Shown here piece by piece: positions 134 to 26,408 of a stretch of 64,000 bases of DNA. How positions within the stretch are numbered: position 1 is the stretch's first letter; the number at the start of each line of letters is the position of its first letter. Origin of the DNA: Escherichia coli (lineage in GTDB: Bacteria > Pseudomonadota > Gammaproteobacteria > Enterobacterales > Enterobacteriaceae); the NCBI RefSeq assembly GCF_017348835.2, contig NZ_CP071375.1; one strand, given 5' to 3'. A model generated the notes under the pieces. It worked only from the letters and a program-made list of their open reading frames with translations. It did not search any database and was not told where the DNA came from. A program made the position numbers and the translations under genes.

Positions 134-190
134 GTCTGGTTTCAAGATTAGCCCCCGTTCTGTTGTCAGGTTTTACCTCTCAACGTGCGG
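134..190 (+). ncRNA. rdlC: Rdl-like antisense RNA (antitoxin of Ldr), interrupted in its terminator hairpin by IS4
   Basis: Sequence GTCTGGTTTCAAGATTAGCCCCCGTTCTGTTGTCAGGTTTTACCTCTCAACGTGCGG resembles Rdl RNAs as recalled; the 3' hairpin arm and T-tract (GGGTTTTCTCTTT) now lie beyond the IS4 at 1629-1641. Confidence 0.35.
179..190. repeat. 12-bp target-site duplication CTCAACGTGCGG, left copy, IS4 #1
   Basis: Identical 12-mer directly flanks both IS4 ends (179-190 and 1617-1628). Confidence 0.9.
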
Positions 191-1616
191 TAATGCCAGT
201 CAGTTAAGCAACTGACTGGCTCTTTTTCGGGGCTGTGGGGTATTTCCAGGGCCTCTCCTTTACCACTCTCGGGAAGGCCCTTTCCCTTCTTGTCGGTAAT
301 TTCACAAGTTGTCCCATACTTGCAAGATCGCGCATCAGCTCCGGTATACGTCCCGGTGAAGCGCCCTGCAATGTCATCAGCATTCTCATCACCATTCCGC
401 ATGATTCTGAGAAGCTCAGTTGATTTGGCCAGTAACCTTTCAGATGTTCCGCCATTTTAATCATCTGATATCTCACCAGATTATAAGCCAGTAAGACACC
501 CCACAGCTCTTGCTCCACAAGCTCAGGCTTTTTACTTCTCAGCGTCAGCCTGCTCAGTTGCATCGTCTGTTTTATCTCCCTGTATCCCAGTTCGATTTCC
601 CAGCGATGACTGTACAGATCCGCCATTTCTCCTCCGGGGAAGCGCATGGCGTCCGTCATCGACGTCAGCAGATGGCAGACTTTTCCTTTGCGCGTCACGG
701 TCAGCAGGCGGGCTGTCACCTCATTTCCCAGTCCCGGCCACTTTTTTCGTGCCTGCGGGCTGGTTTTCAGCTTCACCAGATGATCGCCTTTACCCAGTTT
801 TCTGATCTCTTCATATTGCGCTCCCTTTCTGAGAGGGATCATCCAGTGGCGGTGTTCTCCCGCCAGGCTCCAGGCATTTAACAATCCCAGTGAGTAATAA
901 CCTTTATCCATTAACGTCAGAGTGTTATCGCCGGTTTGTTCTATAAGTTGCTCAGCAAGCTCATTTTCGCTGTTCTTCATCGTGCCGAAGGCTGCAGCCG
1001 TCAGCAGATGGCTGGTCAGTTCCATCTGGCAGACCATTTTGACCTGCGGGTAGAGCGCCGGGGTCCCGGCATGTGTCTGGCGAGGGAAGGCTGCATCGTT
1101 CTCTGGTGTATCCGGTGTGCGCCAGAACACACCATCGATGGCCAGCAGGGTCAGGCCGCACCAGTGCGGATGCGGCGTGGCGTTATGCCAGAGCTGCGCT
1201 GTTTTCGTGAACACGCGGCGGACAGCCTCACTTCCCAGGCGCTGGCGGGCCTGAATAACAGCACTGGGGGCAACGAAGGTGCGATTGCCCGGCAGCATGA
1301 TGTCCAGGCGATTCACAATCTGGTGAAGAGGTTCTTTACGCTCAAGCGCCATGCCAACAATACACCAGACCATCATTTCGAGGGGAAGACGGCGCTTGCG
1401 TAGCGTTACAGTACCTGATTCGGCAAGGCAACGAGAGATGAGTTCGGGGTCGAGGTAATCTCCCAGAGAAGTCAGTGGGTTACGCAGAGAATCGTAACGG
1501 GATACCAGATCAAGAGCCTGTCCAATGTGCATAAAAAAATCCGGAAACGAGTGAGCGTTTCCGGATTCTTACACAGCCACTGGATCGGTCAACTGATCCT
1601 TAACTGATCGGCATTA
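191..1616 (-). mobile_element. IS4: IS4 insertion sequence, 1426 bp, imperfect 18-bp terminal inverted repeats (TAATGCCAGTCAGTTAAG / TAATGCCGATCAGTTAAG, 16 of 18 match)
   Basis: Terminal inverted repeats read at both ends, single 442-aa transposase ORF, 12-bp flanking direct repeat; length matches IS4. Confidence 0.92.
204..1532 (-). CDS. insG: IS4 transposase (442 aa)
   Basis: Full-length ORF filling the element between the inverted repeats; protein recognised as IS4 transposase. Confidence 0.9.
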
Positions 1617-1628
1617 CTCAACGTGCGG
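1617..1628. repeat. 12-bp target-site duplication CTCAACGTGCGG, right copy, IS4 #1
   Basis: Exact match to 179-190. Confidence 0.9.
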
Positions 1629-1928
1629 GGGTTTTCTCTTTCCAGCAACCAATGCCACCAGGGATAAAGCCCCCGCAACATTGCGCCTCACCGGATAACG
1701 CCGGCTTGGTGTGGATACTACGTCTCAATTCATCTTCACTTCATCCCTGAAGTGTTTGCAATGAAGAGTACATTCCGGCTTTTCAACAGCTGTTGCAGTG
1801 GTTTCGTGCAGGTTGTGGTACAGGCTCGCAATTCTGATTAACGACCTGTCCAGGTAGTATGAAGAAATACAATAAGCAGGAATTTATATTATCTCCCCCG
1901 ATTTCCGTCATCGGAGGAGATATAACTG

Positions 1929-3029
1929 TCAGGCAAATATCGTCATCAAATAGGCGGCAAACAGTGCCAGATGCGCTGCGCCATTGAGCACGTTAGTACG
2001 TCCGGTGGAGAAGGAGATATGGCACAGCACTAAAGAGGCCACCATCACCACCATTTCTGGCGCACCAAGTGCAAACTGCAATTCGTTACCCGTCATAAAG
2101 GCAATTAGCGTGACGACAGGTACGGTAAGCGAAATTGTTGCTAACACTGAACCAAAGAACAGATTCATCGCGCGCTGGACCTGGTTGTTCAACACTGCTT
2201 TTAATGCACCTAAACCTTCCGGCGACAGAATCAACAGTGCCACCAGGAAGCCAGTAAAGGCGACAGGGGCATTCATGCTGTCGAGCAAAGTCTCCAGCGG
2301 GCTGGCGTTCATTTTGGTGACTGCAATAACGGCAATCAGGTGGATAATCAACCAGATAGCATGCCACAGGCTGCTATGGGCAGATGGTTTACCGTGATGC
2401 GGGTCGTCATCATCACTGTCATCTTCGTGCTCGTAGACAAACAAACTTTGATGCGTTTTGGTCTGGATCAGCAAAAATACGCCATACATTGCCGCAGAAA
2501 TTAATGCTACCAGTAACGCCTGACCGGTTGAAAAATTCGCCGCAGGCAGAGCCATTGGAAATACCAGTACGATTATCGCCAGGGGGAACAGCGCAATTAA
2601 ATACTGCTTGATACCAAACAGATTCATATATTGGGTGGCAAACTTACGACCGCCCAACAATAATGAAAAGCCAACCAGCCCACCGGTAACAATCATAATG
2701 ATTGAATAGAGCGTATCACGCATTAGCGTTGGCGCGGCGTCGCCGGTTGCCATTAAAGCTGAAATCAAACTGACTTCAAGAATAACCACTGAAAGGCTAA
2801 GAATAAGCGAACCGTAAGGTTCTCCCAGGCGATGGGCTAATACGTCCGCATGACGGACAACACTAAAGGCGCTACTTAAAATACCAATAAGCGCAAGAAG
2901 ATTGATGGCAATGACCACTGGTAGTGTCTGGCTGCTTCCCCACAGGAACAGCACTACCAGCGCCAGAACCGGGAAAATAAGCGAAGTCTCCTTGTGGCGG
3001 GTTTTTACCGCCTCTTGAGCATTTGACAT
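1929..3029 (-). CDS. chaA: Ca2+/H+ (Na+,K+/H+) antiporter ChaA, 366 aa
   Basis: Protein recognised as ChaA; ORF-track start at 3116 is an upstream extension, start set at the ATG giving MSNAQEAVKT. Confidence 0.85.
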   Translation of the reverse strand: MSNAQEAVKTRHKETSLIFPVLALVVLFLWGSSQTLPVVIAINLLALIGILSSAFSVVRHADVLAHRLGEPYGSLILSLSVVILEVSLISALMATGDAAPTLMRDTLYSIIMIVTGGLVGFSLLLGGRKFATQYMNLFGIKQYLIALFPLAIIVLVFPMALPAANFSTGQALLVALISAAMYGVFLLIQTKTHQSLFVYEHEDDSDDDDPHHGKPSAHSSLWHAIWLIIHLIAVIAVTKMNASPLETLLDSMNAPVAFTGFLVALLILSPEGLGALKAVLNNQVQRAMNLFFGSVLATISLTVPVVTLIAFMTGNELQFALGAPEMVVMVASLVLCHISFSTGRTNVLNGAAHLALFAAYLMTIFA

Positions 3030-3298
3030 TATGGTTATCCCTTTGCAGATGAATTTATCGAAAATGTAAAAAATAGGTAGGAAAAATAACAGAAAGTGTC
3101 TGGATATCGGTAACATTTTACGAATTTTTACCCCGCTGTCGATTTTTTACTCATTGGGACATAAAAATAAGTAATACGTTTAGACAATGTTTGTTTTAGC
3201 GTTTCTTAAGAACAGTCTGACATGAAAATTCTCATGTTTTGGCAAGAGTAGATATTGTTGACCACACTTAATGTTCAACTTTGTAAAAGGAGTCAACG

Positions 3299-3529
3299 AT
3301 GCCGTATAAAACGAAAAGCGATCTGCCGGAAAGCGTAAAGCACGTTCTACCGTCTCATGCCCAGGATATCTATAAAGAAGCGTTCAACAGCGCATGGGAT
3401 CAATATAAAGATAAAGAAGATCGGCGTGATGACGCCAGTCGCGAAGAAACCGCGCATAAAGTGGCCTGGGCTGCTGTGAAACATGAATATGCCAAAGGGG
3501 ATGATGATAAATGGCATAAAAAATCGTAA
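3299..3529 (+). CDS. chaB: Cation transport regulator ChaB, 76 aa
   Basis: Protein and synteny match ChaB. Confidence 0.85.
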   Translation: MPYKTKSDLPESVKHVLPSHAQDIYKEAFNSAWDQYKDKEDRRDDASREETAHKVAWAAVKHEYAKGDDDKWHKKS

Positions 3530-3686
3530 AACCGGTAGCTTAGTTAAAGCTATTCGTGCGGTGTTGCCTTGCAAGTGGTCCGTGGATTGCATATTGTCCC
3601 GTTAGTGGTTTCAAAATGAGCAGTAAAAATGTCCGGAAGACACCAAAAAGTTGTCGCAGGGAAGTATGCAGTGGCGGAGGTGTAAG

Positions 3687-4382
3687 GTGATAACGCGTGA
3701 TTTCTTGATGAATGCCGATTGTAAAACGGCATTTGGTGCCATTGAAGAATCACTCTTATGGTCAGCAGAACAACGGGCGGCTTCGCTGGCGGCGACGCTG
3801 GCTTGTCGACCTGATGAGGGACCAGTGTGGATCTTCGGTTATGGATCGTTGATGTGGAATCCGGCACTGGAGTTTACCGAATCGTGCACCGGTACACTGG
3901 TTGGATGGCATCGCGCGTTTTGCCTGCGCCTGACCGCCGGGCGCGGGACTGCGCACCAGCCGGGACGGATGCTTGCACTGAAAGAGGGCGGACGCACCAC
4001 AGGCGTCGCCTATCGACTGCCTGAAGAGACGCTGGAGCAGGAACTAACCCTGTTGTGGAAGCGAGAGATGATTACCGGCTGTTATCTGCCAACCTGGTGC
4101 CAGCTTGATCTTGATGATGGACGCACAGTAAACGCCATTGTGTTTATTATGGACCCGCGACATCCAGAATATGAATCTGACACTCGCGCTCAGGTCATAG
4201 CGCCGTTGATTGCGGCGGCGAGCGGTCCGCTGGGAACCAACGCACAATACCTGTTTTCACTGGAACAGGAGCTTATCAAACTGGGAATGCAGGACGATGG
4301 GCTGAATGATTTGCTGGTATCGGTAAAAAAACTGCTGGCGGAGAATTATCCGGATGGTGTGTTAAGGCCGGGATTCGCCTGA
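3687..4382 (+). CDS. chaC: Glutathione-specific gamma-glutamylcyclotransferase ChaC, 231 aa
   Basis: Protein match; start set at the GTG giving MITRDFLMNADCK (ORF-track TTG start at 3651 is an extension). Confidence 0.8.
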   Translation: MITRDFLMNADCKTAFGAIEESLLWSAEQRAASLAATLACRPDEGPVWIFGYGSLMWNPALEFTESCTGTLVGWHRAFCLRLTAGRGTAHQPGRMLALKEGGRTTGVAYRLPEETLEQELTLLWKREMITGCYLPTWCQLDLDDGRTVNAIVFIMDPRHPEYESDTRAQVIAPLIAAASGPLGTNAQYLFSLEQELIKLGMQDDGLNDLLVSVKKLLAENYPDGVLRPGFA

Positions 4383-4425
4383 GTAAACTTCCCTCATAGT
4401 GGGGCGTCAGACGCCCCCTCAAACA

Positions 4426-4779
4426 TTAAAATGTGAGCACTTTATCGGCTGACAGCGTCCATTGCGCCAGTTCCACAAGAGCACCGATTTCCACCCCATC
4501 AATAAGAGGAAGTGTGCTAATCCCGCGCCCGTCGGTACAGGTTTTGCACAATTTCACCGGTACATTCTGAGCGGTAAGGATCTCCAGCATTTGCTGAATG
4601 TTGTAGCCTTCCCCTGGTTTTTGCCCGCGCAACCCGGCTGTGACCGCATCAGACATCAGGAACAGACGCAGATCCAGATTGCTCTCCTGCTCTCGTAACG
4701 CAATGGCCAGCCGCAAGCTGTTAAACAAGGATTCGCTCCCGTAAGGTGCGCCATTGGCAACGATCACGATTTTTTGCAT
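4426..4779 (-). CDS. ychN: DsrE/DsrF-like family protein YchN, 117 aa
   Basis: Protein and synteny match YchN. Confidence 0.85.
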   Translation of the reverse strand: MQKIVIVANGAPYGSESLFNSLRLAIALREQESNLDLRLFLMSDAVTAGLRGQKPGEGYNIQQMLEILTAQNVPVKLCKTCTDGRGISTLPLIDGVEIGALVELAQWTLSADKVLTF

Positions 4780-4796
4780 TATTTACTCCTGTATTC

Positions 4797-4900
<104 letters not shown>

Positions 4901-4901
4901 T

Positions 4902-6359
<1,458 letters not shown>

Positions 6360-7010
6360 TCAGAAAATGCGCTCCTGATGCACCCATACCGCTGCTTCCA
6401 CGCGAGACTTGAGCTTCATTTTCTTCAGCATGTGCTTGACGTGCACTTTTACTGTGCTTTCGGTGATGTCCAGGCGGCGGGCAATCATCTTGTTCGGCAA
6501 ACCCTGGGCAATCAGCTTGAGAATATCGCGCTCGCGTGGGGTTAACTGGTTAACATCGCGCTCAGTCGTGGCACGGTTAGCGCGCAAGCTGGCGGCCAGA
6601 ACAGGCGTTAATGCTTCGCTTAATACCATTTCGCCAGCAGCTGCCTGATGCAATGCTTTCAGCAGATCTTCCGGTTCCATATCTTTTAACAGATAGCCAT
6701 CCGCGCCGCGTTTCAGTGCGGTGACCACATCTTCTTCATGGTTAGAGACGCTGAATACCACAATGCGCCCTGAGAGAGACTTTTCGCGCAGTTTATCCAG
6801 CGTTTCCAGACCGTTCATGCCGGGCATATTGAGATCTAACAGGATCAGATCGGGATCAAGAGATTCCGCCAGTTCAATACCCTGTTCGCCATTACTCGCT
6901 TCGCCAACCACGGTGATATCTGGTGCCATACTGATAAGCTGTTTTACGCCAGTTCGCAACATCGGGTGATCGTCGATCAGCAGGATAGTAGCCGGTTCCT
7001 GATTACTCAT
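6360..7010 (-). CDS. narL: Nitrate/nitrite response regulator NarL, 216 aa
   Basis: [23 protein letters not shown]-terminus and LuxR-type C-terminus; start overlaps the narX stop by 8 nt. Confidence 0.92.
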
Positions 7011-8799
7011 GGGTATCTCCTTGGACGTCTGTGAAAGTTTTTTCGGGAATAAAGGTGACCACCACTTCGGTGCCACCTGATTCACGACGGCGGACGCGGC
7101 AATCGCCTCGTAAACTTTGCGCACGGTCGCGCATTATTATCATGCCGTAGTGATTGCTGCGGATGGCATTTTCAGGCACGCCGCAGCCGTTATCCTGGAC
7201 GGTCAATTTGACCTGATTATCGTTTTGCGCCACCGTCACCACGACCTCACTCGCTTGCGAATGTTTGAGGGCGTTACTTAATGCCTCACGGGCAATTTGC
7301 AACAAGTGGATTGCCTGATGCGAAGGCACCAGACGAGGCGGCAATTGATAATCCAGCTTCACCGGGAAGCCAAATTTGGCGCTGTACTCTTCGCAACTCG
7401 CCTCCAGCGCCGGACGTAATCCAGGCTCGGTGAGCTGCAAGCGGAATGTGGTGAGCAATTCACGCAACTGCGCCCAGGATGCATTCAGTTCGTTACGGAT
7501 CTGACTTAACAGTTCGCGGCTGCTTTCTGGCAGCGCATCGCCCTGCATCTGTAAACAACTCACCTGCATCTTCATGCAAGAGAGAGATTGGGCAATAGAA
7601 TCATGCAGTTCGCGCGCAATGGTGGCACGCTCTTCCATCACGATCAACTGTTGCTGACGTTCCTGATGCCGATCCAGCGCCAGCGTGGCGGTGAGTTGTT
7701 CAACCAGGGTATCCACCAGTTGTTGTTGATCATGGCTAAGATGACGCCCCTGCGGCAGGGTCGCCAGCAAAATACCGTACTGCGTATGAGAGTCAGCCAG
7801 CCGCCACTTCAGGGTCGTGCCGCGATCACCAACGGGTAATACGCCGCGCGGGCAGAGCTGGCAGCCTTTATCATCACAAGTCATATCTGGCTGGCAGGTA
7901 AACTCCTGATGATTCTCTTCATCATCAGTGTCATACACCCGCAGTTCGATATCACGTAGCAGGGTTAAATTCTGTAAGCCGTTGAGTACAGGTGACAGGC
8001 GTTCACACAGCGGGGCGCGGGAATGCAAACGGCGGTTAGCCTGCCATAAAAAAGAGAGGATCTGATTTTTATGCTCCAGCCCGGCGGTTTTCTCCTGAAC
8101 CCGCTGCTCAAGTACGGCATAACTTTCGGCCAGTTCTGCAGACATATTGTTCAATGCAGTTCCAAGCATCGCCATTTCGTTGCGCCCGCTGATGTTTGCG
8201 CGTTGGGTAAAATCGCGATGGCTGACGGCACTCGCCATTGCCAGCAGTTGCCGCCACGGTTGTAGCAGTCGCGCCCGCAACCAGATAATAGTGAACACCA
8301 GTAAAAGTGCCATAAATACCGCCATTACCCGATGGACCAGTACCACTGTCTCAATGCGCATTTCCGTGGTGCGGTCAAAACCAGATACCAGCTGATCAAG
8401 CCCGGCAACAAACTGGCTGACATCCGCTGACACCGTTTCTCGGTTTTGTGCACGCATCAGCGCAGGGATCAGTTCATTACGCCAGTAATCTTGTAAACCC
8501 TGTAATTGCGCCAGTTGTCCGTCTCGTTCTGCTGCTCGAGTCAACTCGGCGCTAAATGCCGTTTGTTCCATCTCTTTAATTAAGGGCTTGTCTTTCTCGC
8601 TTAATGGCACTGCTGCCAACAGACGGTAACTTTGCATGCGCAGCGATCCCGCTTTGTTGATCGCATGGGCACTGCCCTGAACGCCTTGCACCAGCCAGCC
8701 AGAAACCGCCATCCCTGCCAGTCCAATAGCAGTAGAAAGCAACACAATAAGCGCAACCTGATTAACCAGGGTGAGCGGAGAGAGACAACGTTTAAGCAT
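7003..8799 (-). CDS. narX: Nitrate/nitrite sensor histidine kinase NarX, 598 aa
   Basis: Protein and synteny match NarX. Confidence 0.92.
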
Positions 8800-9064
8800 G
8801 TAAACCTCTTCCTTCTGGCTTTAAATGAGCAATAACCTTAATGAATGTGACGATACATTCTGGAATGGCAGTATTCTCGGCTATTGGCTGAAGTATACCC
8901 ATACCCGGAAAGAGTTACTCCTTATTTGCCGTGTGGTTAGTCGCTTTACATCGGTAAGGGTAGGGATTCTACAGCACCGTGAAAAATCTCATAATTTTTA
9001 TGAAATCACTGTACTCACTATGGGTAGTGATAAATATCAATGATAGATAAAGTTATCTTATCGT

Positions 9065-9078
9065 TTGATTTACATCAA
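9065..9078 (+). promoter_or_regulatory. FNR box TTGATTTACATCAA in the narK promoter
   Basis: Perfect TTGAT-N4-ATCAA palindrome about 60 bp upstream of the narK start codon. Confidence 0.7.
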
Positions 9079-9137
9079 ATTGCCTTTAGCTACAGACACT
9101 AAGGTGGCAGACATCGAAACGAGTATCAGAGGTGTCT

Positions 9138-10529
9138 ATGAGTCACTCATCCGCCCCCGAAAGGGCTACTGGAGCTGTCATTACAGATTGGCGACCGGAA
9201 GATCCTGCGTTCTGGCAACAACGCGGTCAACGTATTGCCAGCCGCAACCTGTGGATTTCCGTTCCCTGTCTGCTGCTGGCGTTTTGCGTATGGATGTTGT
9301 TCAGCGCTGTTGCGGTGAACTTACCGAAAGTCGGTTTTAATTTTACGACCGATCAGCTATTTATGTTGACTGCGCTGCCTTCGGTTTCTGGCGCGTTATT
9401 ACGTGTTCCATACTCCTTTATGGTTCCTATCTTCGGTGGTCGTCGCTGGACGGCGTTCAGCACCGGTATTCTGATTATTCCTTGCGTCTGGCTGGGTTTT
9501 GCCGTGCAGGATACCTCCACGCCTTATAGCGTCTTCATCATCATCTCTCTGCTGTGCGGCTTTGCTGGCGCGAACTTCGCATCCAGTATGGCAAACATCA
9601 GCTTCTTCTTTCCGAAACAGAAGCAGGGTGGCGCGCTGGGTCTGAATGGTGGTCTGGGCAACATGGGCGTCAGCGTCATGCAGTTGGTTGCTCCGCTGGT
9701 GGTATCACTGTCGATTTTCGCAGTATTTGGTAGCCAGGGCGTCAAACAGCCGGATGGGACTGAGCTGTATCTGGCGAATGCGTCCTGGATATGGGTGCCG
9801 TTCCTTGCCATCTTCACCATTGCGGCGTGGTTTGGCATGAACGATCTTGCTACCTCGAAAGCCTCCATCAAGGAGCAGTTGCCGGTACTCAAACGGGGTC
9901 ATCTGTGGATTATGAGCCTGCTGTATCTGGCAACCTTCGGCTCCTTTATCGGCTTCTCCGCGGGCTTTGCGATGCTGTCAAAAACGCAGTTCCCGGATGT
10001 TCAGATTCTGCAATACGCTTTCTTCGGGCCGTTTATTGGTGCGCTGGCGCGTTCTGCAGGTGGTGCATTATCTGACCGTCTGGGCGGAACTCGTGTCACG
10101 CTGGTGAACTTTATTCTGATGGCGATTTTCAGCGGCCTGCTGTTCCTGACCTTACCGACTGACGGGCAGGGCGGAAGCTTCATGGCGTTCTTCGCGGTCT
10201 TCCTGGCGCTGTTCCTGACAGCTGGGCTGGGTAGTGGTTCCACTTTCCAGATGATTTCAGTGATCTTCCGTAAACTGACAATGGATCGCGTGAAAGCAGA
10301 AGGGGGTTCTGACGAACGTGCGATGCGTGAAGCGGCAACCGACACGGCGGCGGCGCTGGGTTTCATCTCTGCGATTGGCGCGATTGGTGGCTTCTTTATC
10401 CCGAAAGCGTTTGGTAGCTCGCTGGCATTAACGGGTTCGCCAGTCGGCGCAATGAAGGTATTTTTGATTTTCTATATCGCCTGCGTAGTGATTACCTGGG
10501 CGGTATATGGTCGGCATTCTAAAAAATAA
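9138..10529 (+). CDS. narK: Nitrate/nitrite transporter NarK (MFS), 463 aa
   Basis: Protein match; start set at the ATG giving MSHSSAPERATGAV. Confidence 0.9.
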   Translation: MSHSSAPERATGAVITDWRPEDPAFWQQRGQRIASRNLWISVPCLLLAFCVWMLFSAVAVNLPKVGFNFTTDQLFMLTALPSVSGALLRVPYSFMVPIFGGRRWTAFSTGILIIPCVWLGFAVQDTSTPYSVFIIISLLCGFAGANFASSMANISFFFPKQKQGGALGLNGGLGNMGVSVMQLVAPLVVSLSIFAVFGSQGVKQPDGTELYLANASWIWVPFLAIFTIAAWFGMNDLATSKASIKEQLPVLKRGHLWIMSLLYLATFGSFIGFSAGFAMLSKTQFPDVQILQYAFFGPFIGALARSAGGALSDRLGGTRVTLVNFILMAIFSGLLFLTLPTDGQGGSFMAFFAVFLALFLTAGLGSGSTFQMISVIFRKLTMDRVKAEGGSDERAMREAATDTAAALGFISAIGAIGGFFIPKAFGSSLALTGSPVGAMKVFLIFYIACVVITWAVYGRHSKK

Positions 10530-10552
10530 ATCTTAATATTTGATTATCCTTT

Positions 10553-10578
10553 GCGCGGCATGATGTCGCGCTTTTTTT
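10553..10578 (+). terminator. Rho-independent terminator after narK (GCGCGGCATGATGTCGCGC + T7)
   Basis: GC-rich hairpin followed by a T-tract. Confidence 0.6.
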
Positions 10579-10816
10579 ATGCGTCATTTAGTTACAACAT
10601 ACTAACGTTATATGGTTTATTTCGCCGGATTTAATTAAGAGCCATTAATACGTTACCCATGGGGAATACTCCTTAATACCCATTTGCATAAAAATCTTAA
10701 TAGTTTAAATAACTACAGGTATAAAACATCTTAATTTACAGCATGTTATGCTGTAACTGTTAATTATCCTAAAGGGGTATCTTAGGAATTTACTTTATTT
10801 TTCATCCCCATCACTC

Positions 10817-10830
10817 TTGATCGTTATCAA
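10817..10830 (+). promoter_or_regulatory. FNR box TTGATCGTTATCAA of the narG promoter; NarL heptamer-like TACYYMT motifs lie upstream at about 10655-10690
   Basis: Palindrome read directly; position about 90 bp upstream of the narG ATG is consistent with the known -41.5 FNR site. Confidence 0.7.
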
Positions 10831-16907: not shown

Positions 16908-17584
16908 TGCAATTCCTGAATATGTTCTTCTTTGATATCTACCCGTACATAGCCGGGGCGGTCTTCCTGATTGGTAGCTGGCTGCGTTATGACTACGGGC
17001 AGTACACCTGGCGCGCGGCGTCCAGCCAGATGCTGGATCGCAAAGGGATGAACCTGGCGTCGAACCTGTTCCATATCGGTATTCTGGGGATTTTTGTCGG
17101 TCACTTCTTCGGTATGTTGACGCCGCACTGGATGTATGAAGCCTGGCTGCCGATTGAAGTGAAACAGAAAATGGCGATGTTTGCTGGTGGTGCCAGCGGC
17201 GTGCTGTGTCTGATTGGCGGCGTGCTATTGCTCAAACGCCGCCTGTATAGCCCGCGCGTGCGTGCAACCACTACCGGAGCGGATATCCTGATCCTGTCGC
17301 TGCTCGTTATCCAGTGCGCGCTGGGCCTGCTGACCATTCCATTCTCCGCTCAGCATATGGACGGTAGCGAGATGATGAAACTGGTTGGCTGGGCGCAGTC
17401 GGTGGTGACCTTCCACGGTGGCGCTTCTCAACACCTCGATGGTGTGGCGTTTATCTTCCGTCTGCACCTGGTGCTGGGGATGACGTTATTCCTGCTGTTC
17501 CCATTCTCGCGTCTGGTACACATCTGGAGCGTACCGGTGGAGTATCTGACACGTAAGTACCAGCTGGTGCGCGCTCGTCACTAA
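16907..17584 (+). CDS. narI: Nitrate reductase A gamma subunit NarI (cytochrome b), 225 aa
   Basis: Protein and synteny. Confidence 0.92.
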
Positions 17585-17605
17585 GCGAATTTTAGTTCAC
17601 ATAGA

Positions 17606-17628
17606 CCCTGCTTCGGCGGGGTTTTTTT
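17606..17628 (+). terminator. Rho-independent terminator of the narGHJI operon
   Basis: CCCTGCTTCGGCGGGG hairpin followed by T7. Confidence 0.6.
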
Positions 17629-17649
17629 ATGGGCACGGTGCGGGGTGAG

Positions 17650-17710
17650 TTGTCGGATGCGCTTCGCTTATCCGACCTACAGGGGAGGATATTGTAGGTC
17701 CGGTAAACGT
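17650..17710. repeat. REP-like palindromic unit(s)
   Basis: TGTCGGATGCGCTTCGCTTATCCGACCTACAGG resembles the REP consensus. Confidence 0.4.
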
Positions 17711-17767
17711 GGTGCCATCGGGCAAAATTAGCTCGGAGTAACAGGTTTTGATTATTTCAGGAAGCGA

Positions 17768-17945
17768 TGGTGGTGGGGGAAGGATTACTCAGCGCTGCGC
17801 GCTTCGCCCTTCGGGTCGTTGCCTGCGGCAACGCTCTCTCGCTGGCGCTCGAGTCGAACCTTGGTCGAAGCTTCTCGTCCTTCCCCGCTTGGGCAGAATA
17901 TTAATTTACGGATTCGCTTGAGAGTTCAGGTACTTTTGAAAGTGA
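17768..17945 (-). repeat. tpr: tyrT-distal repeat unit (about 178 bp) carrying a copy of the tRNA-Tyr 3' end; the region is known to encode the small protamine-like Tpr (ORF not delimited here)
   Basis: GATGGTGGTGGGGGAAGGATT recurs at 17768, 17945 and 18064. Confidence 0.5.
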
Positions 17946-18030
<85 letters not shown>

Positions 18031-18064
18031 AGGGGTAATTCAAATTTCGAGGTAATGCTTGAGA

Positions 18065-18149
<85 letters not shown>

Positions 18150-18194
18150 ACGGGGTAATGCTTTTTACTGGCCTGCTCCCTTATCGGGAAGCGG

Positions 18195-18230
18195 GGCGCA
18201 TCATATCAAATGACGCGCCGCTGTAAAGTG
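18195..18230 (-). promoter_or_regulatory. tyrT promoter (-35 TTTACA at 18223-18228, -10 TATGAT at 18200-18205, GC-rich discriminator GCGCCCCGCTTCC)
   Basis: Matches the classic stringently controlled tyrT promoter; hexamers read on the minus strand. Confidence 0.75.
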
Positions 18231-18308
18231 TTACGTTGAGAAAAATGAACTGGTTGCGTAATTTTCATCCGTAACGGATTAAAGGTAACCAGTTATTTTT
18301 GCTGGCGA

Positions 18309-19151
18309 TTAAAGAATAATCGTCCGATTACCGTAAACAAAGACGCGCTGCGCCAGTACTTTGTAGAGCGCGCGACTTAAGACGTTTTTCTCGACGTCAC
18401 GACCTGCGCGCATCATATCTTCAGCTGTGTAGGTATGATCGACATGAATAACGTCCTGCATGATGATTGGGCCTTCGTCCAGATTGTCATTCACATAGTG
18501 AGCGGTTGCGCCAATAATCTTCACGCCACGTTCATAGGCCTGGTGATAAGGACGTGCGCCGATAAACGCTGGCAGGAAGGAATGGTGAATATTGATGATC
18601 TTATTCGGGAAGCGTGACACAAATTCCGGTGTTAATACCCGCATATACTTCGCCAGCACCACGTAGTCAGGTTGATAAGCATCAATGGCATCCGCCATCT
18701 TTTGATCGTGCTCGTTGCGGCTTAACCCTTCATGGCTTACCAGCTCAAACGGAATATTAAAACGCTCAACCAGAGAACGCAAAGTATCGTGGTTACCAAT
18801 AACTGCCGCGATTTCGACATCCAGGCCGCCGTAATTGGCTTTCATCAACAAATCGCCAAGGCAATGAGCCTCTTTAGTGACCAGAATCACTATCCGGCGA
18901 CGACCGGCAGGATTCAGCTCACGCACGGAGCCTTCTGGCAATGCGCTATCGAGATCCGCCAGCAGGGTGGAATCATTAAAAATCCCTTCCAGTTCCGTGC
19001 GCATAAAAAAGCGCCCGGTACGGTGATCAACAAATTCATTGTTCTGTACGATATTTAACTCGTGCTTGTAGCAAATATTGGTAATACGTGCGATCAGACC
19101 TTTTTGGTCCGGACAAATAGTACGCAGAACTTTACGTTGGAGTGAATGCAT
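18309..19151 (-). CDS. purU: Formyltetrahydrofolate deformylase PurU, 280 aa
   Basis: Protein and synteny. Confidence 0.9.
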   Translation of the reverse strand: MHSLQRKVLRTICPDQKGLIARITNICYKHELNIVQNNEFVDHRTGRFFMRTELEGIFNDSTLLADLDSALPEGSVRELNPAGRRRIVILVTKEAHCLGDLLMKANYGGLDVEIAAVIGNHDTLRSLVERFNIPFELVSHEGLSRNEHDQKMADAIDAYQPDYVVLAKYMRVLTPEFVSRFPNKIINIHHSFLPAFIGARPYHQAYERGVKIIGATAHYVNDNLDEGPIIMQDVIHVDHTYTAEDMMRAGRDVEKNVLSRALYKVLAQRVFVYGNRTIIL

Positions 19152-19200
19152 TGCTGGAAAAACCTTGTTGAGAGTGTTTGCTAAACCGTACCGTCAACCA

Positions 19201-19659
19201 TTATTGGCCGCAGCACTTTTTAAATTTTTTACCTGAACCACAAGGGCAGGGATCGTTGCGGCCAAACTGCGGACGTGTACCGTCAATATAGTACCATTGA
19301 CCGTTTTCTTTCAAAAATCGCGAACGTTCAATTATTGCACCTGTTTTGCCACCTTCGGTAAATCGCGCAACAAAACTAACAAATCCGATATTGTCGGCGT
19401 CCTGCCAACAATGTTCAAATACGGTCAATCCCAACCATTCAGTATGCGCAAATCCGGCAATCAATTCGGCACGTAACGCCGCTGCTCCACAAGATGGATG
19501 CCAGGTCTTTATTAAATAATCTGCGTCTTGCATCACAAAAGCGCAGTAACGCGAACGCATGAGATGTTCTGGATCAGGTGCAACCTTTTCACCAGACACA
19601 TAAGGGTGGCAACATAGGCTATACTCGACAGCACTACCACAGGGACAAAGCTGAGACAC
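19201..19659 (-). CDS. ychJ: UPF0225 SEC-C-motif protein YchJ, 152 aa
   Basis: CPCGSG metal-binding motifs at both ends; start set at the GTG giving (M)SQLCPCGS. Confidence 0.75.
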
Positions 19660-19771
19660 AAATAATCTCCCTGGAAACAATAACGGCGTATTAACCGCCT
19701 GAGTAGCACTATGTTAACCGAGCAGTAGCGATGTGGCTACGATTGCATTCCAGGGGAATCTTGCGGGAATA

Positions 19772-20677
19772 ATGAGAAAGATAAAAATAGGGCTGGCGCT
19801 GGGATCTGGCGCGGCGAGAGGTTGGTCGCATATTGGCGTTATTAATGCGCTAAAAAAAGTGGGTATTGAAATTGATATCGTTGCAGGATGTTCAATTGGT
19901 TCGCTGGTGGGCGCGGCCTATGCATGCGATCGATTATCTGCGCTGGAAGATTGGGTAACCTCTTTCAGTTATTGGGATGTTTTACGCCTGATGGATCTCT
20001 CCTGGCAGCGCGGTGGGTTACTGCGCGGCGAGCGTGTCTTCAATCAATACCGCGAAATAATGCCGGAAACAGAGATCGAAAATTGTTCCCGTCGCTTCGC
20101 GGCTGTTGCCACCAATTTAAGTACGGGGCGTGAATTATGGTTTACTGAAGGCGATCTCCATCTTGCTATTCGCGCATCATGCAGTATTCCAGGACTCATG
20201 GCACCCGTTGCGCATAACGGCTACTGGCTGGTTGATGGGGCAGTCGTTAACCCAATTCCTATTTCGCTCACGCGTGCATTGGGTGCTGATATTGTGATAG
20301 CGGTCGACCTGCAGCACGATGCTCATTTGATGCAACAAGATTTGCTCTCCTTTAATGTCAGTGAAGAAAATAGCGAGAATGGTGATTCTCTGCCGTGGCA
20401 TGCGCGTCTGAAAGAAAGGTTAGGCAGCATAACGACACGTCGGGCGGTGACAGCACCAACGGCAACAGAGATTATGACCACTTCTATCCAGGTGCTGGAG
20501 AACCGCCTTAAAAGGAACCGCATGGCAGGTGATCCGCCCGATATTCTGATTCAACCTGTTTGCCCGCAAATATCTACGCTTGATTTCCATCGCGCGCACG
20601 CTGCCATTGCGGCCGGACAGCTGGCAGTGGAAAAGAAAATGGACGAACTTTTGCCGTTGGTACGCACCAACATTTGA
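19772..20677 (+). CDS. rssA: Patatin-like phospholipase RssA, 301 aa
   Basis: GxGxxG and GCSIG motifs; start set at the ATG giving MRKIKIGLALGSG. Confidence 0.8.
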   Translation: MRKIKIGLALGSGAARGWSHIGVINALKKVGIEIDIVAGCSIGSLVGAAYACDRLSALEDWVTSFSYWDVLRLMDLSWQRGGLLRGERVFNQYREIMPETEIENCSRRFAAVATNLSTGRELWFTEGDLHLAIRASCSIPGLMAPVAHNGYWLVDGAVVNPIPISLTRALGADIVIAVDLQHDAHLMQQDLLSFNVSEENSENGDSLPWHARLKERLGSITTRRAVTAPTATEIMTTSIQVLENRLKRNRMAGDPPDILIQPVCPQISTLDFHRAHAAIAAGQLAVEKKMDELLPLVRTNI

Positions 20678-20768
20678 CCAGAATTTTTATCTACACTTAA
20701 GTTAATTCTGACAGGCGCAGGTGGCAATAGCATGCCACTATTGAGTAAAGCCAGTCAGGGGAGAGAAC

Positions 20769-21782
20769 ATGACGCAGCCATTGGTCGGAAAACAGATTCT
20801 CATTGTTGAAGATGAGCAGGTATTTCGCTCGCTTCTGGATTCGTGGTTTTCCTCATTGGGAGCGACAACGGTACTGGCGGCTGATGGGGTGGATGCCCTT
20901 GAGTTGCTGGGAGGTTTCACTCCAGACCTGATGATATGTGATATCGCGATGCCACGAATGAACGGGCTTAAACTGCTGGAACATATACGCAACAGAGGTG
21001 ATCAGACACCGGTTCTGGTGATATCTGCCACCGAAAATATGGCAGATATTGCCAAAGCGTTACGTCTGGGCGTTGAAGATGTTTTGCTGAAACCAGTTAA
21101 AGATCTGAATCGCTTGCGCGAGATGGTTTTTGCCTGTCTCTATCCCAGCATGTTTAATTCGCGCGTTGAGGAAGAGGAAAGGCTTTTTCGCGACTGGGAT
21201 GCAATGGTTGATAACCCTGCCGCAGCGGCGAAATTATTACAGGAACTACAACCGCCGGTTCAGCAGGTGATTTCCCATTGCCGGGTTAATTACCGTCAAT
21301 TGGTTGCCGCGGACAAACCCGGCCTGGTGCTTGATATTGCCGCACTTTCGGAAAACGATCTGGCATTTTATTGCCTTGATGTAACCCGAGCTGGACATAA
21401 TGGCGTACTTGCTGCCTTGTTATTACGCGCATTGTTTAACGGATTATTACAGGAACAGCTTGCACACCAAAATCAACGGTTGCCAGAGTTGGGCGCGTTA
21501 TTGAAGCAGGTAAACCATTTACTCCGTCAGGCCAATCTGCCGGGGCAGTTTCCGCTATTAGTTGGCTATTATCATCGCGAACTGAAAAATCTCATTCTGG
21601 TTTCTGCGGGTCTGAATGCGACGTTAAATACCGGCGAACACCAGGTGCAAATCAGTAATGGTGTTCCGTTAGGCACTTTAGGTAACGCTTATTTGAATCA
21701 ATTGAGCCAGCGATGCGATGCCTGGCAATGCCAAATATGGGGAACCGGTGGTCGACTGCGCTTGATGTTGTCTGCAGAATGA
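20769..21782 (+). CDS. rssB: RpoS-degradation adaptor response regulator RssB, 337 aa
   Basis: Receiver domain N-terminus; synteny. Confidence 0.9.
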   Translation: MTQPLVGKQILIVEDEQVFRSLLDSWFSSLGATTVLAADGVDALELLGGFTPDLMICDIAMPRMNGLKLLEHIRNRGDQTPVLVISATENMADIAKALRLGVEDVLLKPVKDLNRLREMVFACLYPSMFNSRVEEEERLFRDWDAMVDNPAAAAKLLQELQPPVQQVISHCRVNYRQLVAADKPGLVLDIAALSENDLAFYCLDVTRAGHNGVLAALLLRALFNGLLQEQLAHQNQRLPELGALLKQVNHLLRQANLPGQFPLLVGYYHRELKNLILVSAGLNATLNTGEHQVQISNGVPLGTLGNAYLNQLSQRCDAWQCQIWGTGGRLRLMLSAE

Positions 21783-21983
21783 GCAAACGATAACGCGGGC
21801 TAAATTTGCATTACCTGCTAATGTCGGCTGGTGGTACTATCGTCGCCATTCGTATAAGTAATTGTCTTAATTATGCTAACTCGCCTCCTTTTCAGAACTT
21901 AGCCCCTTCGGGGTGCTGATATACTGGGATGCGATACAGAAATATGAACACGTTCAAAACACGAACAGTCCAGGAGAATTTAA

Positions 21984-22892
21984 ATGGCTGCCATTAATAC
22001 GAAAGTCAAAAAAGCCGTTATCCCCGTTGCGGGATTAGGAACCAGGATGTTGCCGGCGACGAAAGCCATCCCGAAAGAGATGCTGCCACTTGTCGATAAG
22101 CCATTAATTCAATACGTCGTGAATGAATGTATTGCGGCTGGCATTACTGAAATTGTGCTGGTTACACACTCATCTAAAAACTCTATTGAAAACCACTTTG
22201 ATACCAGTTTTGAACTGGAAGCAATGCTGGAAAAACGTGTAAAACGTCAACTGCTTGATGAAGTGCAGTCTATTTGTCCGCCGCACGTAACTATTATGCA
22301 AGTTCGTCAGGGGCTGGCGAAAGGCCTGGGACACGCGGTATTGTGTGCTCACCCGGTAGTGGGTGATGAACCTGTGGCTGTTATTTTGCCTGACGTTATT
22401 CTGGATGAATATGAATCCGATTTGTCACAGGATAACCTGGCAGAGATGATCCGCCGCTTTGATGAAACGGGTCATAGCCAGATCATGGTTGAACCGGTTG
22501 CTGATGTGACCGCATATGGCGTTGTGGATTGCAAAGGCGTTGAATTAGCGCCGGGTGAAAGCGTACCGATGGTTGGCGTGGTTGAAAAACCAAAAGCGGA
22601 TGTTGCGCCGTCTAATCTCGCTATTGTGGGTCGTTACGTACTTAGCGCGGATATTTGGCCGTTGCTGGCAAAAACCCCTCCGGGAGCTGGTGATGAAATT
22701 CAGCTCACCGACGCAATTGATATGCTGATCGAAAAAGAAACGGTTGAAGCCTATCATATGAAAGGGAAGAGCCATGACTGCGGTAATAAATTAGGTTACA
22801 TGCAGGCCTTCGTTGAATACGGTATTCGTCATAACACCCTTGGCACGGAATTTAAAGCCTGGCTTGAAGAAGAGATGGGCATTAAGAAGTAA
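21984..22892 (+). CDS. galU: UTP-glucose-1-phosphate uridylyltransferase GalU, 302 aa
   Basis: Protein and synteny. Confidence 0.92.
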
Positions 22893-22916
22893 CATCCGTA
22901 TCGGTGTTATCCACGA

Positions 22917-22948
22917 AACGGCGTTGAGCAATCGACGCCGTTTTTTTA
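22917..22948 (+). terminator. Rho-independent terminator after galU
   Basis: AACGGCGTTGAGCAATCGACGCCGTT + T7. Confidence 0.65.
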
Positions 22949-22983
22949 TAGCTTATTCTTATTAAATTGTCTTAAACCGGACA

Positions 22984-23012
22984 ATAAAAAATCCCGCCGA
23001 TGGCGGGATTTT
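22984..23012 (-). terminator. Rho-independent terminator after hns
   Basis: AATCCCGCCGATGGCGGGATT hairpin with a T-run on the minus strand. Confidence 0.65.
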
Positions 23013-23035
23013 AAGCAAGTGCAATCTACAAAAGA

Positions 23036-23449
23036 TTATTGCTTGATCAGGAAATCGTCGAGGGATTTACCTTGCTCATCCATTGCTTTTTTGATTACAG
23101 CTGGAGTACGGCCCTGGCCAGTCCAGGTTTTAGTTTCGCCGTTTTCGTCAACGTAGCTATATTTTGCCGGACGCTGAGCACGTTTAGCTTTGGTGCCAGA
23201 TTTAACGGCGGCAAGGCTATTCAGCAGCTCGTTCGGGTCAATACCGTCAGCGATCAGCATTTCGCGATATTGCTGCAGTTTACGAGTGCGCTCTTCAACT
23301 TCAGCAGCAGCCGCGCTTTCTTCTTCGCGACGTTCGTTAACAACAACTTCTAATTTTTCCAGCATTTCTTCCAGCGTTTCAAGTGTACATTCTCTTGCCT
23401 GCGCACGAAGAGTACGGATGTTGTTCAGAATTTTAAGTGCTTCGCTCAT
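23036..23449 (-). CDS. hns: Nucleoid-associated protein H-NS, 137 aa
   Basis: [21 protein letters not shown]-terminus. Confidence 0.95.
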
Positions 23450-24052
23450 TGTAGTAATCTCAAACTTATATTGGGGTGGTTTGTTGAGGTAATAATAGAG
23501 CCTTAAATTCAGTTGTGCAATAGCCAGGAATGTAAGGAATTCAAAATTGTTCTTTATTTTGTGCCGCCAATAAATATCTTTTCATAAAATTAGCCAGAAA
23601 AGACGCGGCATATAGCCCTATTTGTACCGATGATTTCGCAGCACGTGAGGTTAAAACTTCCTGATTCATGTCACATTTTATGGGGAGATTATCGTAGGCT
23701 GACGACCTTTCAGTCTTCTGTATTAGTCGTGTTTACGAGAATTCCCTATTAAGCGAATGATGAAAAGTAGAACAGTCGCAATAAGAGCAGGGACTTAGTA
23801 TTGCACTATCTCCTGGAGGTCAACAGAGGGCTATTACTTGCGCAACAGGTTAAAGATTGTGAATAGTTACCAGCAGTCATTTACCCGCTTATAACAAGCG
23901 AGGCAGTTGTAATGATAGCTCAGAAGGATTATGCAAGGCTTCGTAAGGGAGAACGCATATACCACTTCTGTGCATACTGTTGAGCTGAAAAACTGACGAA
24001 TTATGATAAACTCCAGCCAACTTTATTTCATATCATTGAGGGCCTGTGGCTG

Positions 24053-24670
24053 ATGGCACAGCTATATTTCTACTATTCCGCAATGAATGCGGGTAAGTCT
24101 ACAGCATTGTTGCAATCTTCATACAATTACCAGGAACGCGGCATGCGCACTGTCGTATATACGGCAGAAATTGATGATCGCTTTGGTGCCGGGAAAGTCA
24201 GTTCGCGTATAGGTTTGTCATCGCCTGCAAAATTATTTAACCAAAATTCATCATTATTTGATGAGATTCGTGCGGAACATGAACAGCAGGCAATTCATTG
24301 CGTACTGGTTGATGAATGCCAGTTTTTAACCAGACAACAAGTATATGAATTATCGGAGGTTGTCGATCAACTCGATATACCCGTACTTTGTTATGGTTTA
24401 CGTACCGATTTTCGAGGTGAATTATTTATTGGCAGCCAATACTTACTGGCATGGTCCGACAAACTGGTTGAATTAAAAACCATCTGTTTTTGTGGCCGTA
24501 AAGCAAGCATGGTGCTGCGTCTTGATCAAGCAGGCAGACCTTATAACGAAGGTGAGCAGGTGGTTATTGGTGGTAATGAACGATACGTTTCTGTATGCCG
24601 TAAACACTATAAAGAGGCGTTACAAGTCGGCTCATTAACGGCTATTCAGGAAAGGCATCGCCACGACTAA
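24053..24670 (+). CDS. tdk: Thymidine kinase, 205 aa
   Basis: P-loop NAGKST near the N-terminus; synteny. Confidence 0.92.
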
Positions 24671-24929
24671 TAAGAATTTCTTTACTGACAGGGTGAGCAG
24701 GGCACTTTTATCCTGTCAGTTCGTTTTACGCACTTCTTCCGGGCTATACACCCTTCTCGGCAGTTTTTTAACGCCGCTATACGCCTCACAGGGCTCTTAA
24801 GCACCGACGTTGACTTGTGACCTGTAAAGTACAGTATCCTGTGTTTAGGCGTTATACATCGTCGCAAATATGATGAAGGCTAATGCTGTCGGTTTATGGA
24901 AAAGTTGCTTTGGGTAAACAAAAAAACGG

Positions 24930-24941
24930 CCCCAGAAGGGG
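24930..24941. repeat. 12-bp target-site duplication CCCCAGAAGGGG, left copy, IS4 #2
   Basis: Identical 12-mer at 26368-26379. Confidence 0.9.
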
Positions 24942-26367
24942 TAATGCCAGTCAGTTAAGCAACTGACTGGCTCTTTTTCGGGGCTGTGGGGTATTTCCAG
25001 GGCCTCTCCTTTACCACTCTCGGGAAGGCCCTTTCCCTTCTTGTCGGTAATTTCACAAGTTGTCCCATACTTGCAAGATCGCGCATCAGCTCCGGTATAC
25101 GTCCCGGTGAAGCGCCCTGCAATGTCATCAGCATTCTCATCACCATTCCGCATGATTCTGAGAAGCTCAGTTGATTTGGCCAGTAACCTTTCAGATGTTC
25201 CGCCATTTTAATCATCTGATATCTCACCAGATTATAAGCCAGTAAGACACCCCACAGCTCTTGCTCCACAAGCTCAGGCTTTTTACTTCTCAGCGTCAGC
25301 CTGCTCAGTTGCATCGTCTGTTTTATCTCCCTGTATCCCAGTTCGATTTCCCAGCGATGACTGTACAGATCCGCCATTTCTCCTCCGGGGAAGCGCATGG
25401 CGTCCGTCATCGACGTCAGCAGATGGCAGACTTTTCCTTTGCGCGTCACGGTCAGCAGGCGGGCTGTCACCTCATTTCCCAGTCCCGGCCACTTTTTTCG
25501 TGCCTGCGGGCTGGTTTTCAGCTTCACCAGATGATCGCCTTTACCCAGTTTTCTGATCTCTTCATATTGCGCTCCCTTTCTGAGAGGGATCATCCAGTGG
25601 CGGTGTTCTCCCGCCAGGCTCCAGGCATTTAACAATCCCAGTGAGTAATAACCTTTATCCATTAACGTCAGAGTGTTATCGCCGGTTTGTTCTATAAGTT
25701 GCTCAGCAAGCTCATTTTCGCTGTTCTTCATCGTGCCGAAGGCTGCAGCCGTCAGCAGATGGCTGGTCAGTTCCATCTGGCAGACCATTTTGACCTGCGG
25801 GTAGAGCGCCGGGGTCCCGGCATGTGTCTGGCGAGGGAAGGCTGCATCGTTCTCTGGTGTATCCGGTGTGCGCCAGAACACACCATCGATGGCCAGCAGG
25901 GTCAGGCCGCACCAGTGCGGATGCGGCGTGGCGTTATGCCAGAGCTGCGCTGTTTTCGTGAACACGCGGCGGACAGCCTCACTTCCCAGGCGCTGGCGGG
26001 CCTGAATAACAGCACTGGGGGCAACGAAGGTGCGATTGCCCGGCAGCATGATGTCCAGGCGATTCACAATCTGGTGAAGAGGTTCTTTACGCTCAAGCGC
26101 CATGCCAACAATACACCAGACCATCATTTCGAGGGGAAGACGGCGCTTGCGTAGCGTTACAGTACCTGATTCGGCAAGGCAACGAGAGATGAGTTCGGGG
26201 TCGAGGTAATCTCCCAGAGAAGTCAGTGGGTTACGCAGAGAATCGTAACGGGATACCAGATCAAGAGCCTGTCCAATGTGCATAAAAAAATCCGGAAACG
26301 AGTGAGCGTTTCCGGATTCTTACACAGCCACTGGATCGGTCAACTGATCCTTAACTGATCGGCATTA
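24942..26367 (-). mobile_element. IS4: IS4 insertion sequence, 1426 bp, second copy, same orientation as the first
   Basis: Same terminal inverted repeats and identical encoded proteins as the copy at 191-1616; own 12-bp target-site duplication. Confidence 0.92.
24955..26283 (-). CDS. insG: IS4 transposase (442 aa)
   Basis: Protein identical to the 204-1532 ORF. Confidence 0.9.
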
Positions 26368-26379
26368 CCCCAGAAGGGG
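26368..26379. repeat. 12-bp target-site duplication CCCCAGAAGGGG, right copy, IS4 #2
   Basis: Exact match to 24930-24941. Confidence 0.9.
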
Positions 26380-26408
26380 CCGTTTATGTTGCCAGACAGC
26401 GCTACTGA

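Follow-up and report, generated by a model that had tools for sequence, protein, structure and literature searches.

The DNA considered here is a stretch of 64,000 nucleotides from Escherichia coli (NCBI RefSeq assembly GCF_017348835.2, contig NZ_CP071375.1), referred to below as the window, and the subject is the choice of target by the insertion sequence (IS) IS4. Two copies of IS4 are present in the window, each 1426 bp long, in the same orientation and 24,751 bp apart, with no mismatches between them (Table 1). Both are 100% identical at the DNA level to elements annotated as IS4. They have the length of about 1.4 kb and the imperfect terminal inverted repeats of about 18 bp expected of this element (ends TAATGCCGATCAGTTAAG and TAATGCCAGTCAGTTAAG), a single open reading frame (ORF) for a DDE transposase with the IS4 N-terminal domain (PF13006 Nterm_IS4 and PF01609 DDE_Tnp_1 are recorded for an identical 442-aa protein), and a direct target duplication of about one helical turn, which is 12 bp at both window sites and 11-14 bp over the 55 sites compared below. 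An exact-protein look-up for a 448-aa version of the window transposase returned no record. An earlier sequence-only reading of the window had reported both copies with their 12-bp repeats, CTCAACGTGCGG at the first site and CCCCAGAAGGGG at the second, and these are confirmed by the sequence.

An intrinsic terminator is expected to consist of a GC-rich stem-loop followed by a U-tract at the 3' end of a transcript. Such a terminator is predicted at both insertion sites, with U7 for adhE and U4 for the antisense RNA Rdl.

The second copy is inserted between tdk and adhE, and this order (tdk-IS4-adhE) agrees by synteny with the annotation of strain CE10. The target is a perfect hairpin, ACGGCCCC-AGAA-GGGGCCGT, with an 8-bp GC stem, a 4-nt loop and a folding energy of -23 kcal/mol. 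The A7 at 24920-24926 on the plus strand is the U7 of the adhE terminator on the minus strand, and the CGG that follows it is the base of the stem. The duplicated segment is the symmetric apex, consisting of 4 bp of inner stem, the 4-nt loop and 4 bp of inner stem.

The adhE/tdk terminator matches the target motif described below in full and, across the species, is a hot spot that has been hit repeatedly in both orientations. Among 5426 complete E. coli genomes, IS4 is found here in the window orientation in 1130 and in the opposite orientation in 190, and the site is empty in 2183. In strain H1827/12, an IS4 in the opposite orientation is flanked by the identical 12-bp duplication CCCCAGAAGGGG. 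One further genome (L150) has an 11-bp duplication, CCCTTCTGGGG, as compared with 12 bp in the window and in L133, L134 and L148, which points to another independent insertion at the adhE hairpin. At the rpoD/mug and opgH/yceK terminators, too, IS4 has inserted both ways with an unchanged 13-bp duplication, which makes three terminators where the orientation varies and the duplication does not. The sequence-only reading had placed both window copies in the same orientation relative to their hairpins. Because the adhE site is occupied both ways (1130 versus 190) with the same duplication, such an orientation is meaningless at a palindrome; measured against the direction of the terminated transcripts, plus-strand Rdl and minus-strand adhE, the copies even face opposite ways.

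Hybrid flanks were also observed at four loci (L001, L002, L006 and L009), where the adhE side adjoins one end of IS4 and the bamD/raiA side the other, together with the reciprocal arrangement and with unmatched duplications. This implies recombination, by inversion or translocation, between IS4 copies resident at those two terminators.

The first copy interrupts rdl, the partner of an Ldr-family toxin gene that RefSeq names "toxin Ldr family protein" in PE164 and RM8082. The last GGG of the Rdl terminator stem and the T-tract are split off by IS4. When the empty site is rebuilt, the 3' end of Rdl forms a long hairpin followed by UUUU, with a folding energy of -31.4 kcal/mol. The duplicated segment lies on the descending side of this hairpin and ends 3 nt (GGG) ahead of the T-tract. 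Its centre is offset from the apex of the hairpin by about 11 nt, and no more than 3 of the 7 symmetric pairs are complementary. Under the matrix from non-E. coli sites described below, the half of the rdl site with the T-tract scores 11.6 bits, within the top 22 of the 122,220 half-sites in the window (top 0.02%), and the other half scores -4.0 bits. The rdlD match from Rfam extends 4 nt into IS4.

The rdl-IS4 junction is found in 3 of the 5426 complete genomes. Since the two window copies are identical, the junction is confined to these three genomes and IS movement is biased toward nearby sites (PMC5009759), we infer that IS4 reached rdl by a rare and recent local transposition from the copy at adhE, over a distance of 24.75 kb.

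The earlier description of both insertions as lying in a GC-rich arm and preceding a T-rich tract on the plus strand is therefore half right. Site 1 does lie on the descending side of the Rdl hairpin and is followed by the Rdl T-tract, but site 2 is a symmetric apex that is followed on the plus strand only by TTTAT, its true T7 being on the minus strand.

A two-fold symmetric target motif

IS4 targets were gathered by exact-protein look-ups, from annotated regions, and by two scans for conserved element ends, one in metagenomes and one in species-representative genomes. The sample comprises 22 distinct E. coli IS4 targets and 33 rebuilt targets of related elements (55 in total), from Kosakonia, Buttiauxella, Budvicia, Photorhabdus, Burkholderia and others, as well as 290 unique one-sided flanks of IS4 and elements with the same ends. 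Look-up of a 448-aa Shigella transposase variant (P0007) contributed one new site only. Flank pairings of the repetitive extragenic palindromic (REP) type across different loci were unreliable and were left out of the statistics.

Aligned toward the cut, the 110 half-sites show A at positions -9 to -4 (91-94% at -6 and -5), followed by three G or C positions and the cut. Beyond the cut, C is found at +1 in 75% and at +4 in 67%, while G at +4 occurs in only 4%. IS4 and elements with the same ends thus target a two-fold symmetric composite motif of A-tract, palindromic core and T-tract. In order, it consists of an A-tract of 4-9 bp, 3 G/C bp, a cut, a duplicated core of 11-14 bp, a second cut, 3 G/C bp and a T-tract; the core runs from an initial C to a final G, and its two ends form a GC palindrome about a centre of 3-6 nt. 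The duplications (11-14 bp) are exact and no target bases are lost.

The distance between each tract and the duplication varies little: of 83 arms, 57 have 3 bp, 14 have 4 bp and 7 have 2 bp. In contrast, the length of the duplication varies and follows the spacing of the two tracts, with spacings of 17, 18, 19 and 20 bp corresponding to duplications of 11, 12, 13 and 14 bp (r=0.79, n=27, permutation p<1e-5). With staggered cuts about 3 bp inside each tract, duplication length is therefore set by the distance between the tracts. This distance is 17-20 bp at 26 of 27 occupied two-tract sites, as compared with 33% of unoccupied terminator-like hairpins in the same loci (range 11-32 bp).

Natural sequences that spell this motif are two-way intrinsic terminators between converging genes. 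The link between IS4 and terminator hairpins that the sequence-only reading had drawn from two sites is real and general: an inner stem closing at the junction is present in 62% of the 290 flanks versus 8.7% of random positions, an A-tract in 68% versus 5.7%, and both together in 48% versus 0.6%. Insertions that disrupt a TonB-receptor gene, bcsG, a phage tape-measure gene and a DUF4049 gene (L008, L132, L140 and L141) also fit at least one half-site. At asymmetric sites among the 55, the stronger half-site is beside the right IS end in 16 and beside the left end in 6 (p=0.05), a marginal trend from which no conclusion is drawn.

Several further observations accompany this collection. The annotated neighbours mug, rraA, lpxM, nfsA, pdxK and an L-lactate permease gene recur next to IS4. 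BLAST alignments of junction queries extend 25-35 nt into unrelated flanks, because IS4 target sites are so alike. Small elements with IS4-type ends (85-375 bp, mostly 154-171 bp) are found on metagenome contigs at the apex of Pseudomonas REP-like palindromes (L033, L045, L055, L059-L061, L069, L111 and L117-L119), in the arrangement ...GTGGCGAGC / GGGCTTGCCC / GCTCGCCAC..., where the slashes separate the segment in the place of the duplication from its two sides. Their duplications are of 10 bp, no A-tract is present, and in several copies an inverted loop distinguishes the two "duplications" (GGGCTTGCCC versus GGGCAAGCCC).

Sequence reading, hairpin sensing and other explanations

Both window insertions are best explained as normal IS4 target choices made through this symmetric motif, a reading to which we assign a probability of roughly 0.7. 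In the proposed mechanism, each half of a dimeric IS4-family transposition complex would read one arm in double-stranded DNA, through the shape of the A-tract and base contacts near the cut. The GC palindrome would follow partly from the symmetry of the dimer and partly from the origin of natural two-arm sites as evolved terminators.

If IS4 reads sequence, sites of other elements are expected to predict those of the window. When a matrix trained on non-E. coli sites only was run over the window with the IS copies removed, the adhE site came out at the top of approximately 244,000 combinations of position and length, with 28.4 bits against 21.8 bits for the runner-up. The placement of IS4 in the window is far beyond chance. 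A comparison with 27 unoccupied hairpins of suitable size indicates that base identity differs as well: C is the first duplicated base in 70% of occupied sites versus 31% of unoccupied hairpins (p=6e-5), and is present at +4 in 70% versus 44% (p=0.007). The cut position is counted from the boundary between A-tract and GC, not from the end of the palindrome, which runs through tracts of variable length. A sequence consensus therefore exists at IS4 targets. The earlier suggestion that IS4 recognizes structure or G-runs rather than a simple primary-sequence consensus is not supported by these results, since the half-site consensus alone picks adhE as the best site in the window.

Several observations weigh against the symmetric reading of double-stranded DNA, and most of them would be expected if the transposase instead recognized an extruded hairpin or cruciform, or a single-stranded hairpin, and cut at a fixed distance from the stem base with sequence being secondary. 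Six stem positions covary, with Watson-Crick pairing in 62-82% versus 29-59% expected (z 4.5-6.5), and GC and CG are about equally common at three covarying stem positions. Sites with one tract remain palindromic, retaining 4.9 of 7 symmetric pairs. Hairpins are present in 85% of occupied two-tract sites but in only 16% of arms-only matches in a 1.18-Mb background. Because of this difference, the covariation and the pairing at one-tract sites, a real preference for a palindrome or hairpin still has to be reckoned with. Duplication length tracks hairpin size, for which cruciform geometry is a simple explanation, and a variable stagger of 11-14 bp fits poorly with a rigid complex on straight B-DNA. 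The small same-end elements occupy the apex of REP-like palindromes without an A-tract, and a precedent for insertion at terminator hairpins is provided by IS1272/TnSha1 (PMC4923244). In addition, the galU/hns terminator (around 22995), ranked second in the window by the matrix, carries IS4 in neither orientation in any of the 5426 genomes; therefore, either the matrix alone is insufficient or selection purges insertions beside hns. Finally, every site in the collection is a survivor in a natural genome and not a de novo event.

Recognition of structure nevertheless seems to us unlikely. It leaves the base preferences unexplained, namely the A-tracts (91-98%), the choice of C over G at +1 and +4, and the different composition of unoccupied hairpins. 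The cut is set by the boundary of A-tract and GC even though the variable A- and T-tracts are complementary and could extend the stem. At rdl, the duplication is centred about 11 nt from the apex, with 3 of 7 pairs, insertions in coding sequence (L005, L153 and L140) have only 1 of 7 pairs, and REP elements account for 0 of 22 E. coli sites. The covariation can also be explained otherwise, as natural two-arm sites are nearly all evolved terminators. Genomic data alone cannot separate sequence reading from hairpin sensing, since nearly all natural two-arm sequences are evolved terminators and survivors are biased toward harmless places; on the evidence above, symmetric reading of double-stranded DNA is favoured. 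A further variant, which we hold to be similarly doubtful, is that IS4-subgroup transposases have no fixed stagger, so that each end would be placed by its own arm, 3 bp inside the A/T-tract, and the target would set the duplication length of 11-14 bp. The GC palindrome would then be strongly deformed or extruded in a cruciform-like form, and IS4, with conserved inward-facing terminators at both of its ends, could follow a "terminator-swapping" strategy with two-way terminators as safe havens, in which it would land in these terminators and restore the function it had destroyed.

Two other explanations can be set against the symmetric motif more decisively. If IS4 landed nearly at random and persisted only where it did no harm, for instance in a terminator flanked by converging genes, the many sites between converging genes would follow, as would the finding that half of 8 new IS4 insertions in mutation-accumulation lines were in coding DNA (PMC5009759); the restriction of the data to natural genomes also leaves room for such an effect. 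However, selection cannot set cuts to the base pair, 3 bp from the tracts, and identical duplications are found in both orientations at three sites. Gene-disrupting insertions follow the same half-site, the motif is common to elements of many genera and metagenomes, and the matrix from other genera predicts the adhE site. Survivorship as the only cause is very improbable and was rejected, being contradicted by the precision of the cuts and the cross-genus motif. Recognition of the G-run that ends the duplicated segment, as the sequence-only reading had suggested, is the least probable explanation of all and was rejected as well, being contradicted by the list of sites. Both window duplications do end G-rich, and G is favoured across 146 flanks at -4 (62%) and -3 (52%). 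Yet strong conservation is limited to a G at the end and a C at the start, many duplications end in GCTG, GGTG, GAGC, TGGC or GCCG, and the G-richness mirrors the preference for C at +1 and +4 of the opposite half-site, so that a G-run is not needed.

With IS4 targets read through the symmetric motif, the location of IS4 in the window is explained, one copy being at a species-wide hot spot and the other probably a recent hop into a half-site, by which the antitoxin RNA Rdl is truncated. The rule could be used to predict IS4 landing sites. It may also flag terminators as recurrent breakpoints of IS4 rearrangements, such as those with hybrid adhE and bamD/raiA flanks, and may guide the design of targets for the biochemistry of IS4 target capture, of which we know of no study. 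Because duplication length follows target geometry, the way in which an IS4-family complex engages its target can be approached by concrete tests.

Hairpins within IS4 and other features of the window

Terminator-like hairpins are carried by IS4 itself (Table 1). The hairpin in the right terminal repeat is kept in 37 distinct end sequences and is followed by a T-run in 33 of them; in Burkholderia and Paraburkholderia elements, it exhibits a compensatory change from AG/CT to GT/AC. At the rdl site, this hairpin would, on the basis of its predicted fold, halt read-through from Rdl, and the predicted read-through RNA (in the interval 134-245) would be about 40 nt longer, ending at the IS-borne hairpin. 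As inward-facing hairpins with T-runs are present at both ends, transcripts entering from either flank are predicted to meet a substitute terminator. The hairpins at the two IS4 ends would thus stop incoming transcripts and replace the terminator that was lost, so that the insertion would be well tolerated; insertion into a terminator may accordingly be unusually harmless.

Since the only promoter-like site (1592-1565, minus strand) is upstream of the left hairpin, this hairpin may also attenuate the element's own transposase transcript. The outermost 35 nt of the left terminal repeat (TAATGCCGATCAGTTAAGGATCAGTTGACCGATCC; 1582-1616, also 26333-26367) contain three GATC (Dam) sites, whereas the corresponding 35 nt at the right end contain none, an arrangement that recalls the Dam control of IS10 and IS50.

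The RtT RNA, the tRNA genes and the trp leader of the window are ordinary E. coli features.

Table 1 Features of the two IS4 insertion sites and other features of the window.
Feature	Position	Strand	Basis or details
IS4 copy 1	191-1616	minus	18-bp imperfect terminal repeats starting TAATGCC; transposase ORF 204-1532, 442 aa
IS4 copy 2	24942-26367	minus	identical to copy 1; transposase co-directional with adhE
Site 2 left arm, A7 + CGG	24920-24929		best half-site in the window, 17.0 bits
Site 2 target duplication, left copy CCCCAGAAGGGG	24930-24941		inner stem, loop, inner stem
Site 2 target duplication, right copy CCCCAGAAGGGG	26368-26379		
Site 2 right arm, CCG + TTTAT	26380-26387		half-site 11.4 bits
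Ldr-family type I toxin gene, 5' part (MTLAQFAM...), rdl partner	1-85	minus	sequence reading
rdl antisense RNA gene, interrupted at 190/191	134-190	plus	Rfam RF01813 match 134-194, 55.1 bits
Site 1 target duplication, left copy CTCAACGTGCGG	179-190		sequence
Site 1 target duplication, right copy CTCAACGTGCGG	1617-1628		sequence
GGG + TTTT, remainder of the Rdl terminator, sole good half-site arm of site 1	1629-1635	plus	half-site 11.6 bits
Inward-facing terminator-like hairpin in right terminal repeat of copy 1, GCCAGTCAGTT-AAGC-AACTGACTGGC then TCTTTTT	195-230 (hairpin 195-220)	plus	terminator scan and fold
Equivalent of right-repeat hairpin in copy 2	24946-24981	plus	
Terminator-like hairpin AUCCGGAAACG...CGUUUCCGGAU + U7 just upstream of the transposase AUG, copy 1	1533-1567 (1567-1539 then U7)	minus	fold, sequence
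Equivalent of hairpin upstream of the transposase AUG in copy 2	26284-26318	minus	
RtT RNA and two tRNA genes	17768-18149	minus	Rfam; tRNA-Tyr by synteny with CE10
trp operon leader	52709-52802	minus	Rfam

Relation to known insertion sequences

The placement of IS4 described here is an instance of known IS4 behaviour, not a new kind of system. Habermann in 1979 and Klaer in 1981 are said to have found IS4 duplications of 11-13 bp, and Mayaux in 1984 reportedly described an IS4 in the pheST attenuator together with an AAA-N20-TTT consensus. In a literature search that did not cover the older IS4 papers, neither an explicit statement that IS4 targets terminators nor the AAA-N20-TTT consensus was found. 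The published specificity is of the same element and agrees with our results in its variable duplication of 11-14 bp, its A-rich and T-rich arms and its high selectivity; De Palmenaer, Siguier and Mahillon in 2008 called the conservation of both target arms, left and right, in the IS4 subgroup "spectacular" (PMC2266710). In the same literature search, no paper was found that equates the IS4 motif with two-way terminators, gives the rule of a cut 3 bp inside the tract or the tracking of duplication length, or reports a census of the adhE site. These refinements, together with the putative IS-borne terminators, are offered as useful leads.

Among IS4-family elements, IS10 and IS50 use symmetric 9-bp consensus sites, and IS231A targets GGG(N)5CCC with A/T-rich flanks. 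A two-fold symmetric consensus of the type seen for these elements and for IS186 is also found for IS4. IS186, another member of the IS4 family, reads GGGG(N6/N7)CCCC targets through their flanks and in both orientations (Lee et al. 2016, PMC5009759). It resembles IS4 in its symmetric target, recognition of flanks, core of variable length, use of both orientations and repeated hits at few sites. In contrast, IS4 uses A/T-tracts and a GC palindrome bounded by C...G, has the polarity CCCC...GGGG where IS186 has GGGG...CCCC, and generates a longer duplication.

IS1272/TnSha1, of the IS1182 family, enters terminator hairpins in staphylococci (Furi et al. 2016, PMC4923244) and shares with IS4 a preference for such hairpins, multiple independent insertions and both orientations. 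However, IS1272 has no primary-sequence consensus, deletes part of the stem-loop and generates no duplication, whereas IS4 has a consensus and an 11-14 bp duplication. Two features of such structure-only targeting are not seen with IS4: the consensus is strong, no blunt deletion of the stem-loop occurs and the duplications are exact. Insertion sequences that target REP elements, among them the IS4-family member ISRm22 (Tobes and Pareja 2006, PMC1525189), also have extragenic palindromes as their targets, and the small elements with IS4-type ends are likewise found at REP-like apexes. E. coli IS4 differs from them in that 0 of its 22 sites are REP elements and in that A/T-tracts are part of its motif.

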